DNA of 64,000 nucleotides from Scenedesmus sp. PABB004 (lineage: Eukaryota), in the NCBI GenBank assembly GCA_014905635.1, contig CM026548.1:1178001-1242000 (forward strand), given 5' to 3'. Within the stretch, counting starts at the first letter, position 1, and each line of letters starts with the position of its first letter. The translations under genes and the position numbers were made by a program. The notes below the pieces were generated by a model. It had not been told where the DNA came from and did no database searches. It saw only the letters and a program-made list of their open reading frames with translations. Below are positions 5,394 through 61,896 of the stretch, in pieces.

Positions 5394-6043
5394 GGCGCGC
5401 TGGCGCTTGCGCGCGCGACGGACGACGATGGACTGCGCTGTGCGCGCGCGCGGGGCTGGACCCGGGCTGTCTGCTCGCCTGCACTGTCTGCTCCTCACAC
5501 TGCACTGCGCGAGGCATGGGGCGCGGCCGAGCGAGTGGCCACGGGCGGGGCTGTGCTGATCGTCAAGGAGCGAGGGGGGAGGGGGATTGCGATGGCGACG
5601 AGATTGGCGGGACTCGTGTTGTTCTTGCAGCGGGGATTGCGCTGCGGCGGCGACGCAGCGCGCGCGTGTTTGCGCGGCGCGGTCTAAACCCACGTGCGAC
5701 CGGCGGCGGCCTCCCGCACTCCACGGGCAGATCGCAGTGGACTGCCGCCCGCACCGACCCCAGCCGCCCCCCACGATCACCGCCGCTGCCGCGCCCGCTG
5801 CTGCTGCTGCCGCGCCGCGCCGCACAGCTCGGGCGCACCCTGCGGCCTCGCCGCGCCTCACCGTAGCTCCAGGGGACGCGATAACACCGCCCTTCGCCGG
5901 ACACGCCCGCGCGGCCAGCCCACGCGCGAGGCGGGGCCCCCCACATCAGCGGCGCCGGCGGCGGCGCCCGCGGCCCGCCCGGGCCCCCGCGGCGGCCCGC
6001 TCCGGGCCCTCGGCCCGCGGTAGCCTCCCGCTCTCGGGCCAGC

Positions 6044-8363
6044 ATGGCGGACGATGAGCTGGGCCTCTTTGGCTCCGACGACGACGAGCAGCAGCAGCAG
6101 CCGGCGGCGGCGGCGCCGCCGTCGCCGTCGCCCGGCGGCGAGGAGGCCGGCGGCGCCGACGCCGGCGCCGGCGACGCCGACGGCGACGACGGCGCGGCGC
6201 GCGCGCAGGCGGAGTACGAGGCGGGGCTGGAGGACGACATGGACGAGGATGAGCCGCCCGCCGGCGCGCGCGGGGCAGCGGACGGCGGCGGCGGCGCCGC
6301 GCCGGACGAGGATGACCTCTTTGGCGGTCCCGACGACGACGACGACGACGACGCCCCGGGCGCGGCGCCGCCGGCCGAGGCGGAGGCGCGCGGGCCGCCC
6401 ATCGACGTCCACGCGCCGCTGCTGCCGCGGTGCGCGGCCGCGGCCCCCGCGCCCTCGGCAGCACACCCCCTGCCGTGCCGACGCCGCGCCGCGCCGCCCG
6501 CCGCGCCGCGCCGCGCCACGCCGCCCGCCGCGCCGCGCCGCGCCGCGCCGCGCCGACGCCGCGCGCCGCGCGCCGCGCCTCAGGCCGCCGCCGGGGCGCG
6601 TGGTCGTGATGCGGCTGCCCAACGTGCTGCGCATCGACCCGCGGCCGTACGACCCCGAGGCCTTTGACGGCGGCGCCGAGGAGTATGTGGACGAGCGCGG
6701 CGTGACGCGCGTGCGGCCGCGCGACATCAACGTCATCCGCTGGCGATACAGGTGCGGGGGGGGGGGGGGGCTGCGCGTGCTGCTGGTCCTTGCTTGTGTG
6801 TGCGGTGTGTGTGTGTGTGTGGGGGGGGGGGGTGCGCGCTTGCTCGGGCGTGGGTGTGAGTGAGTTGCAGGGACGGGCGCTGCGGCGGCGGCCGACGCGC
6901 CGCGCCGGCGCGCGCGCCGACGCAGGCCCGGCGGCGGCGAGGGCGGCGCGCCGGCGCGCGAGTCCAACGCCCGCTACGTGCGCTGGAGCGACGGCAGCGA
7001 GGGCATCCTCCTGGGCGACGAGGTGCTGGACGTCACGCGCCAGGCCGCCGCGCGCGCGCACAGCTACCTCTTTGCCGTGCGGTGCGTTGCCTGCGCCCGG
7101 GGGGGGGGGGGGGGCAGCGCGCGCCGGGGCGGCGCGTGCCGCGGCTGCTGCCGAGGGGCCTGCGCGGCACAGGGCGGGGCCGGTCCGCCGCGCCGCCGCG
7201 TCCCGAGCCCCGACCTCGACCGTCGGACCCGCGCCACCGCCGCCGCCGCCTGCAACCGACAGGTACGACACGATCGAGGGCCAGGCGCACCTCGACCAGC
7301 GCGTGACCGTCACGCCCGCGAGCCTCGACTCCAAGCTGCACAAGCGCCTCAAAATGACCGTCACGCAGGCCGCGCACCGCGCCGACAAGGCGCGCCGCGC
7401 CGCGGCGCCGCAGCCCCGGCGCGCGCCCAGCGCCCTCGCGCGTCCCCCGGCCCAACACCGCTGCCCCCCTCCCACACACACACACACACTCACACACCCA
7501 CGCCCGCACACGCTCACACGCCCACACACCCACCCGCCCACACCCAGGTGCGCATGCACTATGCCTCCAAAAACCCGGAGCTCGAAAAGGCCGAGAAGGA
7601 AAAGGCCGCGGCCGAGGCGGCGCAGCTCAAGTGCGCGCCGCCGCGCCGCCGCTGCGAGCTTGCCGCGTGCTGCGCCGGCTGTACGCGTGCGTGCGCCCGC
7701 GCCCGCACTGGCGGCTGACAGGCCCCGCGCGCCGCCCGCGCCTCCCTCGCAGGGCCGCGCGCGAGCGCGCCGCGGGGCGCGCCGCGCCGCGGCCGCGGCG
7801 GCCCGCCTTCACCGCGGCGTACCTGGAGGAGGACGGGGCGGAGGCCTACGACGCATACGACGGCGGCGCCTACGGCTCGGGTGCGGCGGGCCGGGCCGTG
7901 CGGCCGCGCGCGCCGGCCGCCCCGCGCCCGCCGCGCTGCGGTGGGGCGGCGCCGGCACGGGGCGGCGCTCACGCAGTCGCGCGCGCCCCCGCGCGCCCCC
8001 GCGCAGGCGACGAGGAGCAGGAGGAGGAGCTGGCGCGGCGGGGCGCAGACGAGGACGCCGAGGTGCGGCGCGCGCCGCGTGCTGTGCACGGCGGCGCGCC
8101 GTCACAGCACGCCCGCCCCGGCCGCCCGCCCGACGGCCCACGCGCGCCGCGGCCGCGCCGCGCAGGCCGAGGCCGCGCAGCGCCTGCGCAGCGCCAAGCG
8201 CGCCAGCCCGCCGCCGCTGGGCGGCGGCCGCAAGCGCGGCGGCCGCGAGAGCGACGAGGACGAGCCGGACGAGCCCGCGCCGCCGCCGGCCGAGGAGCGC
8301 GCGGCGGCGGCGCCCGGCATCACCGTGCGGCGCGGCGTGCTGCTGGACGACGACGACGACTGA
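6044..8363 (+). CDS. LEO1: RNA polymerase-associated protein LEO1 (PAF1 complex)
   Basis: Acidic N-terminus MADDELGLFGSDDDE, then Leo1 motifs MRLPNVLRIDPRPYDPEAF, NVIRWR, ESNARYVRWSDGSEGILLGDEVLDV and PASLDSKLHKRL. Ends ...VLLDDDDD*. Confidence 0.9.
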
Positions 8364-55835: not shown

Positions 55836-57459
55836 TCAGCGCTTCGGCCCGTTGTTGATGCGCGCGAGGATTTGGTTGCCATACTTGCTCATCTTGCAGC
55901 GCGGCTTGCGCAGGCGCACGCCGGGGCGGTACGCCTTGTCGGCAAACGCGTTGGCATACTCGGCGCAACTGAGCTTCCCGTTGCCTGCGGGCGGTCGGCC
56001 GCGCGGCGTGCGTTGGCCCTGACGCCCCGCTACGGCCGCCCCTGCGCCGCCCCGCCGCCGTGCGTGCACACCATCGGCGTCCAGGTGGTCCAACATCGCG
56101 CCGGCAAACGCGAAGCCCACAAAGCCACCTGTAGGGGAGGGGTGGAGGGAGGGTGGGCGGGAGAGAGGAACGTGTGGGACAGACACGTCAGCCAGCGCCG
56201 CTGACCCGCGGGAGCGCACCAGCAGGCCTGGCCCCTGCTGCGCGCGCGCGCCACAGCGCACCTTTGCCGTCCGTGCCCTCAAAGCCGTCGCCCTCAAAGC
56301 CGTCCAGGCAGAAGGTCATGGATAGCCGCTTGGCAAGCTCGCCCACCGACAGGCCCAGCACCTCAGCCATGTCAGGGCAGACATTGTGCGGCGCAGGCTT
56401 GGTGTCGGCCGCGGCCGGGGCAAAGCTGCGCAGCCGGGTGTTGCCGCAGGCGGCGCAGCCGCCGTCCGTGTTGCTGCAGGCAGGTGGGGGCAGGGGCGGC
56501 GCGGCGGTGGGCGTGGGCGGTGCGCCCGGTGCGCCCGGTGCTGCACCACCCGCTGGCGCGACCAGCCGCCAGGGAGCAAGCACGCTCACGCGTTGTGGCA
56601 GCCCGCATCGCACGCGCCGGCAGCCCTGCGGTAGCAGTGTGAGGCGTCCGACCGTTAGCGAGCGCGGTCGGCACGCGGCGCTGCGCTGCGGGCTCAGGGG
56701 GCACTGCGCCCAGCGGCGGCGCCGCGAGCAGCCGCTGTGCCGTGAGCGCGCGGCGCGGCGCACGTGGAGCAGCCCTTGTCGCTTGCAACCGAGCTGTCGC
56801 TGCACGAGGGCTTGCCCTGCGCGGCGCGGCGCGGGCGCCGTCAGGCCGTGGCGACCGCCGGGGGCAGCGGCGGCGCCTGCAGGGGGCGGGGCGCTGCTGC
56901 TTGGCCGAGCCGGCGCGCCGCTCACCAATGGCCCCTGATAGATTTCATTCCTGAGGTGGTCGTAAATTGTAAAGTTGCGCCCGCAGCTCCAACACGGCTC
57001 ACAGTTGCAGCCAAAGAAATTGCAGTACGTGGGGCTGCTCGTGGCATTCACCGGGGTGAGGAGAGGGCTGTCAGGCGCTCGGGCGCCCGCGCAGGGGCGG
57101 CGGCGCGCCGGCGCCCTCCCCTCCCCAGCGCGCGCGCTGCCTCACGTGTACAACGGAATCTCGTAAAGCGTGCCGTCAGGGAGCGTGAAATCATGCATTT
57201 CACCCGAATTGCACTGGTTGTTGGTCGAGGGGAGGAAGTACAATTTGTTATTGTAGTGTGCGCCGATGCAGACCTCCTCCGAGCTCCTGCAGGCAGCCGC
57301 GGTCTGGTGCGAGCGAGACGTGAGGTCAGGCAGCGCTGTGTGAGGCAGGGGAGGCAGCACTGCACGCCCCGCCGCCGCACGCCGGCGCACCTGCAGCAGC
57401 ACGAGCGCTGCCAGCGCGGCCGCAGCTGCGGCGGCAGCGCGCCGAGCGGTGACCACCAT
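55836..57459 (-). CDS. Secreted Cys-rich protein with CNFFGCNC motif and C-terminal EF-hand
   Basis: Signal peptide [23 protein letters not shown]. About 8 frame-compatible exons include YCNFFGCNCEPCWSC, GKPSCSD...GCST, GACDAGCHN and DGGCAAC, and end LDHLDADGNGKLSCAEY...GPKR*. Confidence 0.72.
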
Positions 57460-58979
57460 TGCTGTTGGCAGATCTACGAGGTGGCAGCGCACAGGCAGCG
57501 GCGCGCCGGCTTGGCACGAGGGCTGGGCCGTGCAACAGCACCGGAGGCGGCCCGCTGCATCCCCGGCCAGCCCCGCCGCGCCCGCCCGCCATCGCGGCGC
57601 CGGTCGTGAGGCCAGCACCTCTCGGCCGCCTCACCTGACCTGCCTGTGCAGGGCGCGGTTGGCGCGGAGAGCGCGGCTCGCGAGGGGCGTCACGTAGCGG
57701 AGGCGAGTCAGCGCCGATTGGGCTGGTGCGCAGGGGCCGAGAGTGTCGGTAGCAGGCTGGCGCGGGACTGGCGGGGCCGCGCGGGCGGGGGCGAGGTCGG
57801 GCAAGCCGTGGCTGGCCGCGCACCCTGTTCGCCCTGAGAGTTGCTCTGCTCTGGAGGCTGTGCGCGTGAGCGCCGCGGCTCAGGGCGCTGCATCGCACGG
57901 CGGGCGCCGCGACGGCGGCTGACACCGCTTCTGCGCGGGCGCCGCAGGCTTGCGCGGCGGCCGTGACTGGCCGAGTGTGCAGCACGCTGCTGCTTGGTGC
58001 CTGAGGCGTTGCGGCAGCGCGCACCGCCACCCGCAGCGCTCGCCCGCCGCCGCTCGCCGCTCGCGCGCAACGCCCCCGGCCAGCGGTCGCCGCCGCGCTC
58101 GCCTGTTCTGGGCAGCGCACGCGCTCCCGGCGATGCGCCTGAGTCCGCGAACCTCATTGACCGCCCCGCTGCCCTGCCGCCGCCGCTGCCGGGCAGCTGC
58201 CCGGCAGCGGTGGGCGCTGGGCGCTGCCGGGCAGCTGCCCTCTCCGCGGCTGAACCACGGCCGTCGCCCGGCTCGTGGCGCTCCCGACGTCCGGATTAGG
58301 TCTATTGGTGCTCTAGAGTAGAACGCACGCACGCCAAGTCCCAAGCAGCAGCGCTCGCCCGGTGACCAGGTCGCCCGGCCGCGCCCGAGCCAGCAGGGCC
58401 CGCGCCGCGATGCTCAGGCCTCGCCCCGGAGCTGGCGCTGCCGCCCTGCCGGTGGCGGGCGCGCCAGGCAGCGCAGCGGGCCGTTGACCGCGCCGGCGGG
58501 CGGTCGCCACGGAAGGGCCGCCGCCGCCGCGGACGGTGCGCCAACGACCGGCTGAGCGGCCGGCTCAGTGGCCAAAGCGGCGTCGTCGCGGCGGCGGAGC
58601 CTGGCGCGGCGGCGGCGCCGACGCGCTCGGGGTGCCGCCCCGAGTGCGTCGGCGCCGCCGGCCGGCGAGCACGGCTGCAGAGCCAGCCTAGCCTGGGGGG
58701 GGGGGGGGCGAGCATGTTGGGCTGGGTTGCGGGCCAAGTCACCGGCCGCGCCGCATGGCGCGTGGCGCTAGGCGCCGTGTGGTCTGTGGTGTTGATGGTA
58801 GTCGTCGATCGGCAGCCGAACACCTGGCTGATCACGGGGGGAAGGGGAGGGGGGCTCAAGTCGCCCGCCCGGCCCTGCCCCGGCGGCAGGGGGGCTCGGG
58901 GCCTGTGACGCACCCCCGCCCGCCCTGCTCACAGAGTCTTTGCGGGAGGCGGTCCCGTGCTGGTTAACCCGCACGCGGT

Positions 58980-59010
<31 letters not shown>

Positions 59011-59061
59011 GGGGGGGGGCTGTTGCAAGTCAAAGCACAAGCCAACGCGCTCGCCGCGGCC

Positions 59062-61896
59062 TCACTCGACGGCCGACACAGACGCCGCCGCGCGCGCCGC
59101 GCCGTCGGCCAGCCGCCACGTCACCGACACGCAGCAGCCGGCGGGGCCGCCATCGCCGCCCCCCTCGCCAAGCGACTCGGTGTGGTGCGCCCAGCCGGCA
59201 GGGAAGAACAGGCAATCCCCCGGGAGCAGCACCGCCTCGAGCGCGCCCGCGCCGGCGGCGAGCGGGAAGCGCGCGGCGTCGGGGCGCGCGGCGGAGTTCA
59301 CGCGCGCGCGGCGGCGCAGCAGGTGGGGCTCCGGGTAGGGGTAGAGGCGGTGACGCTGCTCCGGGGAGAGCAGCAGCACGCGCTTCACGCCGCGCAGCTG
59401 CGCGCGCGGCGGCGCGACGGGTGGGGGGTCGGCGCCGGGGGGTCGGCAGCTGCGGGGCCGGCGTCGCGGAGCGCCATCGCCGCCCAAGGGCTCCCCCCGC
59501 GCCCCCTCCCCGCCCACCCGAACACCGCCGCCGCACCTGCAGCAGGAAGGAGTGGCTCGCGTCGTAGTGCAGCGGCGACACCGCGCCCGCGGGGCTCACC
59601 CACAGCCGCGGCGCCTGCGCAAACGCGGGCCCGCCGCCGCGGTCGGCCAGGCCCGCCAGCAGCTCGTGCAGCGGCAGCTGCTCCGACAGCAGTCCTGCCG
59701 GGAGCGCGGCCTGAAGGTAGTGGTGCTCCGCGGGCGCGGGGGGCCGCCACACCACGCGCGGCAGGCGGCAGCCCGGCTGAAGGCGGGCCACAAATTCGCG
59801 CGCCGGCATGTTCACCTCCCAGCTGGGCGCGGCGGCGGGGCCTGGGGGGTGAGCGGAGCGGGCGGGCGCGGCGCGGCGAGCGCGGCGCGGCGGGTGAGCG
59901 CGGCGGGCGAGCGCGGCGCGGCGGGCCGGCGCCGGCCGCCGCGCGCGCACCGCCAGCGATGCGTGCCAGCAGCTCCACCAGCTGCGGCTGCACAAACGGA
60001 AACTGCAGCGACGGCGCCACGCGCACGCGGCCGACGAAGCCAGGCTGCGCCGCGAGCCAGCCCAGGCCCCACCCGCCGTCGCGCGCGGCCGCCGGCCAGG
60101 CCGCCGCGACGCCGCGCAGCACGAGCGGCTGCTCGTGCGGCGCGGCGCGCAGCGCGGACAGCAGGGTGCCCAGCTCTTCGCGCAGCAGCGGGTCGGCCGC
60201 GGTCGCGGCCGCGCGCTCCGCGGCGGGTCCCATGCCGGCCGCCTCAAACAGCTGCGCAGACGGACTGCCGCCGGCGCCGGCGCCCGGGCCGGCGAGCACC
60301 GTGCGCATCGCGGCGCATGCGGCGCGCCGCTCGGCCGGCTCGGCCCAGTCGCACTCCGCCGCCGCGCCCCAGACGGCGAGCAACGCCGGCGGCGGCGCGG
60401 CGCCGAGCAGCTGCCGCGGCTCCCGCGCCGGCGCGGCGGCGCCGAGCAGGCGCTGCATGCCGCGCCGCAGCGCGTCCCAGGCCGCCGGCGCCGCCTGCTC
60501 TGCGGCCCCACCGCCGCTGCCGCCGGGAATCGGGTGCCCTGTGTGCTTGGTGAGCCAGCCGGGCTCCTCGGCGAGCATGGCCTTCAAAAAGAACGTCTCC
60601 AGCCGCGGCTGCAGCGCGTCGGCGACCGTCCACGCGCGCGCCAGCAGCGCCGCGAGCTCGTCGCCAGCCGCGCCGCGGGGGCCAGCCGCGCCAGCGTGCG
60701 CCGCCGCGCCCTGCTGCTGCCGCGCAGCCTGCAGCGCGACGTACAGCTCCAGCGCTGCATCGAGCTGCCCAGCGAGCTGCGGGAGGTGCGCGCCGGCGTG
60801 GTGCGCCGCCCAGAAGAGGTCGCGTGTCCACACGCGCGCCGACGGCTGCGCCAGCTCAAACGCGCCCCGCACCAGGCGCTTCAGCGACCAGCACGCCGCC
60901 GACACTGCGACGCGGAGGGTGGGGGGGGGGGGGGGCGGCGCCGGCGTGGCAGCGCGGCGCCGCGCGCGCGGGGCCGGCGGCGCCGCGGCCCCGGCGGCGC
61001 GCACCCTGGCGGTCGGCGTCGCCCGCGGCCGCCGCCTCGTCCGCCGCGCGCCGCGCGGCGTCCAGGTCCTCGGCCAGCGCCGGCAGCAGCATCGGCCCCG
61101 GCGGCAGCGCCGCGGCCGGTGGCAGCAGCGACGGCAGGTCGATGCCGCGCAGGGTGACCGCCTGGGTCTTTAGCATGAAGGCACAGGGCACGCCAGGCAG
61201 CAGCGCGACGCCCAGCGGCGGCAGCGCCGCGCCGCCGGGCGCGGGCGCGGGCGCGACCGAGGCGGCGGCCGCGTGCGCTGCGAGCGCGGCCGCCGCGGCG
61301 CTGCCAGGCGCGGCCTGCAGCACCGTCGCCTCGAGCTTGGTCAGCCCCAGCGCCAAGGCCTCGGCGCGCAGCGCCGCCGCGGCGCCGCCCGCCGCGGCCG
61401 CGAGCGCGGCGCGGTCGCGCGCGTCGCCAGGGCCTGGCGGCAGCGCGACCGCGACCGTGTCCGCATCGCTCACGCCGCGCAGGAAGCGGCCGAGCGGCAG
61501 CGAGCCGCGCAGGTACACGCCCACGAGCCGCCGCGGCCCCAGCGCGGCGGCGTACGCCGCCGCCATGCGGTCCAGCAGCGGCCGGAGCTCCGGCGGCACC
61601 TGCGCGCGCGGCGGTGAGGTGCTCCGCCGGCAGCGCGCAGCGCCGCAACCGGCCACGCGGCTGCCGCCGCTGCTTCTCGCCTGGCTGAGCGATGCCTCAT
61701 TGCGCACGAAGCCCGTGGCGGGGTCGAGCGGCTCCGGCGGCGGCGCGAGCGGCCGCACCGCGGGTGGCGGCGCGCGCTGCTGCTGCTGCTGCGGCCGCTG
61801 CTGCCGGCCGCTGCTGCGGCACAACACGCTGCGGGCAGTTCGACCAGGGGTCAGCGACGGTCCCCGGCAGCGACCGGGCGCTGCCGCCGCCGCCAT
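59062..61896 (-). CDS. Nucleotidyltransferase (Pol-beta superfamily)-JmjC/cupin dioxygenase fusion protein
   Basis: N-half: GVYLRGS...GVSDAD, FMLKTQAV, CWSLKRLVRGAFEL...TRDL. C-half: PLVLRG..AAWPA, HYLQ, RLWVSPAGAVSPLHYDASHSFLLQLRGVKR, RFP, LLPGDCLFFPAGWAHH. Both halves share one open exon. Confidence 0.82.

Follow-up and report, generated by a model that had tools for sequence, protein, structure and literature searches.

Introduction

Pol-beta-type nucleotidyltransferases (NTases) and JmjC-type 2-oxoglutarate oxygenases belong to two well-studied enzyme superfamilies. Among the former, ANT enzymes, KNTase and LinB transfer adenosine monophosphate (AMP) onto small molecules, and GlnE, DrrA and MNT transfer it onto tyrosines of proteins. 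Among the latter, FIH and JMJD5 hydroxylate protein side chains at C3 to give stable alcohols. Skp1 in Dictyostelium and Toxoplasma undergoes prolyl hydroxylation and then glycosylation of the hydroxyproline. Here, we describe a gene of the alga Scenedesmus sp. PABB004 in which an NTase half and a JmjC half share one coding sequence. The gene lies on the minus strand, in four exons from 61896 to 59062, of a 64,000-nucleotide stretch of contig CM026548.1 (assembly GCA_014905635.1, forward-strand positions 1,178,001 to 1,242,000), which we refer to as the window. The corresponding GenBank protein, 'hif1an' [Scenedesmus sp. PABB004] of 942 aa, was found by a word-index search with 100% identity to exon 2; we call it P0001 and use its residue numbers for the Scenedesmus protein.

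Each half of the gene product resembles described enzymes and departs from them in specific ways. The NTase half has the two-domain layout of AadA / ANT(3'')(9) (PDB 6fzb, 5g4a, 5luh, 4cs6), AAD(9), ANT(4'), KNTase and LinB, in which an NTase core with G-S...D-x-D and a later carboxylate is followed by a helical domain. It differs from these enzymes in that identity is only 13-19%, in that the algal half is ~80 residues longer and contains Ala-rich inserts, and in that the algal protein is eukaryotic and fused to an oxygenase. The NTase-plus-helical layout is also shared with the protein AMPylators GlnE, DrrA/SidM and MNT-HEPN. The other half shares with FIH (HIF1AN; PDB 1h2k, 1mze) and JMJD5 (4gjy, 6f4p) the JmjC/Cupin_8 fold, the iron triad, the 2-oxoglutarate Lys and a 'LYPYP' segment, and, unlike FIH, it is fused to an NTase. 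The original prediction, made from the DNA letters, had described a fusion gene of this kind at this position, and all of the features that it described are present.

The fusion is conserved across green algae

We regard this locus as almost certainly one real gene for a two-enzyme protein that represents a conserved fusion. The GC content of the region is 0.75-0.83, and each of the six reading frames stays open over hundreds of codons. At ~80% GC an open frame alone therefore proves nothing, and we accept the fusion because homology extends to either side of the junction and because the architecture is conserved in relatives. As proposed originally, neither a stop nor an intron falls between the helical domain and the start of the JmjC domain, exon 2 being uninterrupted from 60904 to 59951.

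Relatives were collected by an exhaustive phmmer search with the 198 aa of the NTase part encoded by 61599-61006, which returned 67 proteins at E<=1e-3, 15 of them at E<=1e-10. A Pfam scan was carried out on 30 of the 66 non-self matches, selected by length so as to include every one of the 13 with at least 600 aa; the 36 that were left out comprise 33 of less than 220 aa and three of 224-269 aa, and fragments are frequent among the remainder. Cupin_8 is carried by 12 of the 13 long relatives. The order is NTase then JmjC in eight of them (P0007, P0014, P0019, P0025, P0032, P0034, P0046 and P0066) and JmjC then NTase in four, which are metagenome sequences (P0052, P0057, P0061 and P0063). The exception, P0015, has an N-terminal half as in the Chlorella protein, followed by low-complexity sequence.

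The relatives include Chlorella variabilis hypothetical protein XP_005851046 (P0007), Klebsormidium nitens GAQ89297 (P0066), MMETSP transcript products of Pterosperma sp. CCMP1384 (P0014, P0068), products of the Tetraselmis sp. GSL018 transcriptome annotated as 'Clavaminate synthase-like protein' (P0046, P0071) and a protein of Micractinium conductrix (P0076). At the level of sequence, the NTase-JmjC link is thus conserved in Chlorophyta (Scenedesmus, Chlorella, Micractinium, Tetraselmis and Pterosperma) and in the streptophyte alga Klebsormidium. Because open reading frames (ORFs) from the transcriptomes of two genera carry both domains, the two are on one mRNA in these relatives. In the reversed form both domains are swapped: residues 80-312 of P0052 match 534-812 of P0068 (E 1e-36), and residues 401-592 of P0052 match 162-386 of P0068 (E 2e-14). 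A link that survives a swap of domain order is a classic sign of two activities serving one pathway.

Three clusters of the ESM Atlas (74, 62 and 71 members) carry Cupin_8, JmjC_2 and NTP_transf_2 and are look-alikes of the reversed-order proteins; few of their members have a taxonomic record, and these are mainly Chlorophyta. One cluster has been named automatically as 'Cupin-like/JmjC/Nucleotidyltransferase domain-containing protein'. The architecture is therefore visible to automatic annotation where the NTP_transf_2 profile PF01909 passes its threshold, and it is hidden in the Scenedesmus protein because PF01909 fails there. Accordingly, the original statement that no described protein of this architecture is known goes too far: our searches found no paper on it, but the three domains already appear side by side in automatically assigned database names. 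Full-text searches of the published literature, which included six orthologue accessions, found nothing on a pairing of a JmjC or cupin domain with an NTase. In the accessible text of a survey of JmjC-related dioxygenases (PMC2938197), the terms 'nucleotidyl', 'NTase' and 'pol beta' have no occurrences, and the passages found in PMC2922099 are unrelated to the pairing. Word-index searches for homologues returned 1, 3 and 3 proteins, crowded by Ala-rich words, and say little on distribution.

Two relatives depart from the common layout. The Micractinium conductrix protein P0076, annotated as 'band 7' and 1394 aa long, has ~650 extra N-terminal residues with PF12708 and is probably another chimeric prediction. 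P0059 and P0091 (MMETSP Transcript_34148, 436 and 474 aa) consist of an NTase and an incomplete helical domain without JmjC, and have a hydrophobic N-terminus and a Ser-rich tail; they may represent an NTase-only paralogue or the same family in another lineage.

The N-terminal half is predicted to be an AadA-like nucleotidyltransferase

The sequence and the predicted structure of the N-terminal half both indicate that it is a Pol-beta-type NTase core followed by a helical, putatively substrate/NTP-binding domain, closest in fold to the AadA-type adenylyltransferases. The signature GS-x11-DAD corresponds to G104-S105 (61506-61501) and D117-A-D119 (61467-61459), the motif as a whole spanning 61506-61459, and a third carboxylate is provided by E162 (61332-61330). 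All five residues, G104, S105, D117, D119 and E162, are invariant in an alignment of P0001 and six relatives (seven of seven full-length sequences), and the Pol-beta superfamily motif hG[GS]-x9-13-Dh[DE]h is present in at least 90% of 30 sequences. E162 lies in 'TKLEATV' and is invariant in the forward-order proteins, and Asp takes its place in the reversed-order proteins ('TKADVR'). Invariant residues in the helical domain are W276, R280, R283 and T297-R298-D299-L300.

An AlphaFold2 (AF2) model of P0001 residues 57-400, built from a 30-row alignment, has a mean predicted local distance difference test (pLDDT) of 90.5 and a predicted TM score (pTM) of 0.81. It consists of an alpha/beta core, in which E162 lies on strand E105-112 of the model, and then five long helices. 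In a Foldseek search of the PDB with this model, the top eight matches are all AadA (6fzb, 5g4a, 5luh, 5lpa, 4cs6; E 9.5e-5 to 1e-3, probability 1.0), over ~314-334 columns against targets of 260-267 aa that are covered in full, at 18-19% identity; AAD(9), ANT-3,9, ANT(4') and KNTase follow below. VIA, which is independent of Foldseek, gave two-domain matches to ANT-4 (Z 10.2, 224 residues aligned), AAD(9) (10.1), ANT-3,9 (9.6) and LinB (9.3), with 214-224 residues aligned across this group, as well as to DrrA (8.3-9.1) and GlnE (8.1-8.2), the values for the last two (8.1-9.1 together) lying in the background range for helical bundles. CD-NTase and OAS families are not among the fold matches listed. 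The Pol-beta-type signature and its helical partner, both part of the original prediction, are thus borne out by motif and by fold.

Profile evidence for the NTase comes from relatives. PF01909 (threshold 21 bits) is passed by P0058 (27.5), P0063 (24.1), P0057 (23.8) and P0052 (21.2), and 10 of the 30 sequences in alignment A2 match it at E<=0.01, with a best E of 4e-6. The A2 profile itself matches the CD-NTase CdnD (5.3e-5) and OAS1 (0.034), in both cases only over the GS...DxD stretch (profile positions 94-151 of 174). Matches to PADLOC and NCBIfam models are all below threshold and confined to the active-site motif, the PADLOC cyclase models reaching 16-17 bits in P0052 only. AadA_C (PF13427) has no match in P0001 or in the family members scanned. 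Likewise, in P0057 only, NCBIfam ANT_9 reaches 17.6 bits against a cut-off of 340 and MntA 17.1 bits against 60, and the AMPylators GlnE, DrrA/SidM and MNT-HEPN give no match at the sequence level.

The likeness to standalone bacterial NTases that had been proposed for this half is retained as a lead: a structure search of the ESM Atlas recovered clusters of such proteins (254-281 aa) at TM 0.80-0.84, a row-normalised value to be read as a lead only, and AadA_C-bearing clusters at TM 0.55-0.66. The scan of prokaryote genomes with a pattern and tblastn searches of plasmids and phages found no NTase relative.

When the helical domain alone was compared with HEPN domains, VIA gave Z 10.4-11.5, which by the tool's own note is background, as values below ~13 are for helical bundles. 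We considered a HEPN RNase and rejected it, since the R-x4-6-H motif of P0001 ('RDLFWAAH') is not conserved in the orthologues.

The C-terminal half is predicted to be a FIH/JMJD5-like oxygenase

Judged by sequence, the JmjC domain is an intact FIH/JMJD5-like oxygenase and is not an FIH orthologue. Pfam Cupin_8 (PF13621) matches P0001 residues 527-781 with 83.5 bits against a cut-off of 27.4 (E 3e-23), and JmjC_2 matches with E 5e-6. The HYD...WAH iron triad and the GVKR Lys, which had been read from the DNA as intact, consist of H680 and D682 (HYD, 59569-59561), H761 (WAH, 59187-59185) and K695 (GVKR, 59385-59383). These four residues are invariant in seven of seven sequences and align with known positions of FIH, H680-Y-D682 with 'HYD', G-V-K695-R with 'KGYKR' and A-H761-H with 'WWHH'.

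Among solved structures, the sequence is closest to FIH (4.6e-18), followed by JMJD5 (~2e-17) and TYW5 (1.7e-8). With the family profile, FIH (6.3e-37, FIH residues 59-297) and JMJD5 (1.7e-35) are nearly tied, TYW5 reaches 5.9e-16, and JMJD7 (4.9e-12) and NO66/JMJD6 (~1e-5) are weaker. The assignment of this half to a JMJD5/TYW5 type therefore needs to be divided: the JMJD5 part stands, with FIH alongside it, whereas TYW5 is a much weaker match.

Orthology with FIH is denied on two grounds. The algal family lacks the C-terminal segment past FIH residue 297 (of 349), which comprises the dimerisation helices of FIH, and the substrate-positioning Gln of FIH is replaced by Arg. The latter position belongs to an invariant R718-R719-R720 ('LRRRAR') that is aligned with D237-R238-Q239 of FIH ('CDRQSQ'), a segment through which FIH positions its substrate (R238/Q239). 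The RRR stretch suggests an acidic or phosphate-bearing substrate. The GenBank name 'hif1an' thus overstates the relationship to FIH and is probably wrong.

Relatives of the JmjC half also occur on plasmids. A tblastn search with the Tetraselmis orthologue gave six plasmid records, all matching the JmjC half only, and no match in phages. In an Eleftheria terrae plasmid (L001, 5941-6798) and an Aulosira laxa plasmid (L002, ~5866-6426), the matching genes adjoin non-ribosomal peptide synthetase (NRPS) genes. These NRPS-linked matches are weak (26-34% identity over part of the domain) and suggest amino-acid or peptide hydroxylases in natural-product clusters.

The N-terminal extension fits an organellar presequence

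The first 50 residues of P0001 contain no acidic and nine basic residues. A similar composition, with 0-4 acidic residues, is seen in most orthologues whose N-terminus is complete; P0061, with eight, is the exception. In a full-length AF2 model of the Tetraselmis orthologue P0071, residues 1-86 have pLDDT <50. Both the composition and the predicted disorder of the extension fit the organellar transit peptide that the original prediction had suggested.

A possible joint reaction of the two domains

Both catalytic centres are intact, and both domains are likely to be catalytically active. As the simplest way of joining the two, and in line with the coupled hydroxylation/nucleotidylation proposed originally, we tentatively suggest that they may act in sequence on the same substrate, by hydroxylation and then O-nucleotidylylation. 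In our model, the JmjC domain would consume O2 and 2-oxoglutarate and leave a stable hydroxyl on one of the carbons of the substrate. By analogy with FIH and JMJD5, this substrate would most likely be an amino-acid side chain in a protein or peptide. The NTase domain would then transfer a nucleoside monophosphate (NMP), probably AMP, from a nucleoside triphosphate (NTP) onto the new hydroxyl with release of pyrophosphate. The N-terminal extension suggests that this would take place in a plastid or mitochondrion. The two activities are joined in this model because one domain makes a hydroxyl, because the family of the other always needs one, and because selection has held the pair together in a single protein even as their order was exchanged. 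To our knowledge, all characterised enzymes among the fold matches of the N-terminal half put AMP on a hydroxyl group, and the PDB titles of these matches agree with AMP-transfer chemistry. Skp1 provides a precedent for the proposed logic, in that a hydroxyl made by an oxygenase is capped by a second transferase; it differs in that the oxygenase is of the prolyl 4-hydroxylase class, the cap is a sugar and not a nucleotide, and the enzymes are separate proteins.

If correct, hydroxylation followed by nucleotidylylation would be a new two-step modification and would add a new type of enzyme acting downstream of JmjC hydroxylases. We speculate further, and regard it as rather doubtful, that the substrate is an organellar protein, e.g. 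a ribosomal protein or translation factor, in which O2-dependent side-chain hydroxylation is followed by an AMP/NMP cap from the fused NTase, which would be a hitherto undescribed protein modification and would tie the mark to the O2, 2-oxoglutarate and ATP status of the organelle.

Several observations count against sequential modification of a shared substrate. A fusion implies functional linkage, and neither the order of the reactions nor a common substrate follows from it. The AadA-like fold, which acts mostly on small molecules, disfavours a protein substrate. The N-terminal half of P0001 and its exons have no Pfam or NCBIfam match above threshold. The full-length AF2 model of P0071 has confident domains but a pTM of 0.48 and a disordered linker (383-414), and it predicts no fixed geometry between the two active sites. 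A bacterial operon of NTase and cupin genes was not found, the two plasmid neighbourhoods inspected showing no NTase in the stretch, and the pattern scan of prokaryote genomes, derived from the seven-sequence alignment, gave 22 pattern matches and 0 relatives, a weak result in that such a scan detects near-exact motifs only. A complex prediction for the N-terminal half with the JmjC half, run without alignments or controls, gave no verdict (score 0.01, mark 0.34).

The fold matches also invite a different reading, in which both halves serve in the tailoring or detoxification of a metabolite or xenobiotic, such as an aminoglycoside-like or peptide antibiotic that hits the bacterial-type ribosome of an organelle. 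The top matches are the antibiotic-modifying AadA, AAD(9), ANT(4'), KNTase and LinB, the plasmid relatives of the JmjC half adjoin NRPS genes, and the N-terminal extension resembles a transit peptide. Nevertheless, we consider this rather unlikely: among solved structures, the protein hydroxylases FIH and JMJD5 are by far the closest to the JmjC half, the AadA_C and ANT thresholds are not reached, and the NRPS-linked cupin matches are the weak and partial ones described above. If it were true, this would be the first AadA-like enzyme native to the organelles of eukaryotes; aadA is the standard plastid selection marker in algae, and a native enzyme of this kind would therefore matter for algae in which the marker is used. 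A third reading, which we judge unlikely, couples the domains by regulation, the NTase nucleotidylylating its own protein or hydroxylase domain, or sensing NTP, and thereby switching the oxygenase, on the models of GlnE with glutamine synthetase and of MNT-HEPN; in a variant counted together with it, the two domains independently modify different sites of one target. The flexible linker without a predicted fixed interface, the presence of GlnE and DrrA among the two-domain matches and the likeness of the helical domain to HEPN domains, including AMPylated HEPN toxins, all fit such a switch, but the HEPN scores are in the background range, the HEPN RNase motif is not conserved in the family, and no conserved acceptor Tyr has been identified.

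That the protein acts on RNA, with the JmjC domain hydroxylating a modified base like TYW5 and the NTase adding nucleotides to the 3' end of an organellar RNA, appears quite improbable to us. TYW5 is a significant relative by profile, there are weak motif-level matches to CCA-adding enzyme, oligonucleotide cyclases, CdnD and OAS1, and the invariant RRR stretch could bind phosphate; yet FIH and JMJD5 score ~20 orders of magnitude better than TYW5, the fold of the NTase matches the ANT type and not the poly(A), CCA or TUTase types, and the CdnD, OAS and CCA matches are limited to the GS...DxD stretch. An artefact, with two adjacent genes joined in error by the gene prediction or through the long open frames of such GC-rich DNA, could draw on the six open frames at the locus, on RNA data for the strain not having been found and on the fact that the same GenBank model probably holds a false merger at its 3' end. 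It is hardly credible given that a single exon bridges the junction, that the fusion is seen in 12 of the 13 long relatives, among them ORFs assembled de novo from the transcriptomes of two genera, that there are invariant residues to either side of the junction and that a domain-swapped form exists.

Gene structure

The spliced model (Table 1) was checked by script: all three introns are GT-AG introns that keep the frame, with GTGCG 5' ends and CAG 3' ends. The model runs from an ATG at 61896-61894 to the TGA and contains 828 codons, or 801 if an 81-nt segment is spliced out. It equals P0001 residues 1-801, apart from the 27-aa segment that P0001 removes at 61680-61600. Removal of this segment makes the 'NEASLSQ-VPPELRP' motif colinear and gap-free with the orthologues, and requires a non-canonical GC donor.

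Table 1 Coordinates of the NTase-JmjC gene and its parts in the window
Feature	Position	Strand	Basis
Whole coding region, NTase-JmjC gene	59062..61896	-	exons joined by coordinates; GenBank protein comparison
Exon 1: Arg/Ala/Ser/Pro-rich N-terminal extension, NTase core, first helix of helical domain	61005..61896	-	
Intron 1, 100 nt, GTGCGC...CGCAG, phase 1	60905..61004	-	
Exon 2: remaining helical domain, variable linker, N-terminal part of JmjC, single open frame	59951..60904	-	
Intron 2, 109 nt, GTGCGC...CCCAG, phase 1	59842..59950	-	
Exon 3	59841-59537	-	
Intron 3, 139 nt, GTGCGG...CGCAG, phase 0	59398..59536	-	
Exon 4	59397-59062	-	
N-terminal extension, ~55 aa, transit-peptide-like	61732..61896	-	composition; disorder in Tetraselmis orthologue
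In-frame 81-nt segment (27 aa, ARSSGG...PPRAQ), GC-AG intron in GenBank	61600..61680	-	
Predicted Pol-beta-type NTase alpha/beta core, P0001 residues 76-237	61105..61590	-	alignment, AF2 model, Foldseek, PF01909 in relatives
Predicted helical partner domain (AadA_C / HEPN-like), P0001 residues 245-384, spans intron 1	60564..61083	-	
Cupin_8/JmjC 2-oxoglutarate oxygenase domain, P0001 residues 527-781, split by introns 2 and 3	59125..60137	-	
TGA stop, taken as true end of gene	59062..59064	-	orthologue C-termini

No RNA run was found for the gene among sequencing runs, the sole run listed being a DNA metagenome that contains 0.16 of the words. Of 38 stop-to-stop ORFs in the flanks (54.0-58.9 kb and 62.0-64.0 kb), none matched a Pfam family at E<=0.001, so that the surroundings are uninformative as to function.

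The 3' end of the gene and the EF-hand tail of the GenBank model

In P0001, a GTGAGG donor overlapping the TGA is used, so that the stop is lost and the protein is extended by 141 residues encoded in exons at ~56.48-55.84 kb. This tail (minus strand, 55839-56481; 'DADGNGKLSCAEY') has a weak EF-hand match (PF00036, E 0.047). In six of six aligned full-length relatives, the C-terminus lies 4-38 residues past the last JmjC strand ('SVTxRF'), and the TGA in the window is at the same place. None of the six aligned orthologues has the EF-hand tail, and the Micractinium protein also ends near the last JmjC strand. The tail moreover needs an intron of ~2.6 kb, compared with 100-139 nt for the other three. 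A run of ~26 C followed by a (CA)n microsatellite (58977-59019), ~40 nt past the TGA, fits a non-coding 3' region. Because orthologues end there, because the intron of the tail would be ~2.6 kb long and because the microsatellite follows the stop, we take 59062 as the true end of the gene, in line with the original prediction, and reject the EF-hand tail as an unlikely part of the protein. The 141 aa are probably an annotation error, a merger with a separate downstream gene. The GenBank entry thus probably errs in both its name and its tail, and Pfam does not see its NTase half.

Within the putative intron of 2.6 kb lies a Cys-rich stretch of lower GC ('CNFFGCNCEPCWSCGRNFTIYDHLRNEIYQ', 56900-57050, minus strand), which could be an exon of a downstream gene or a chance translation.

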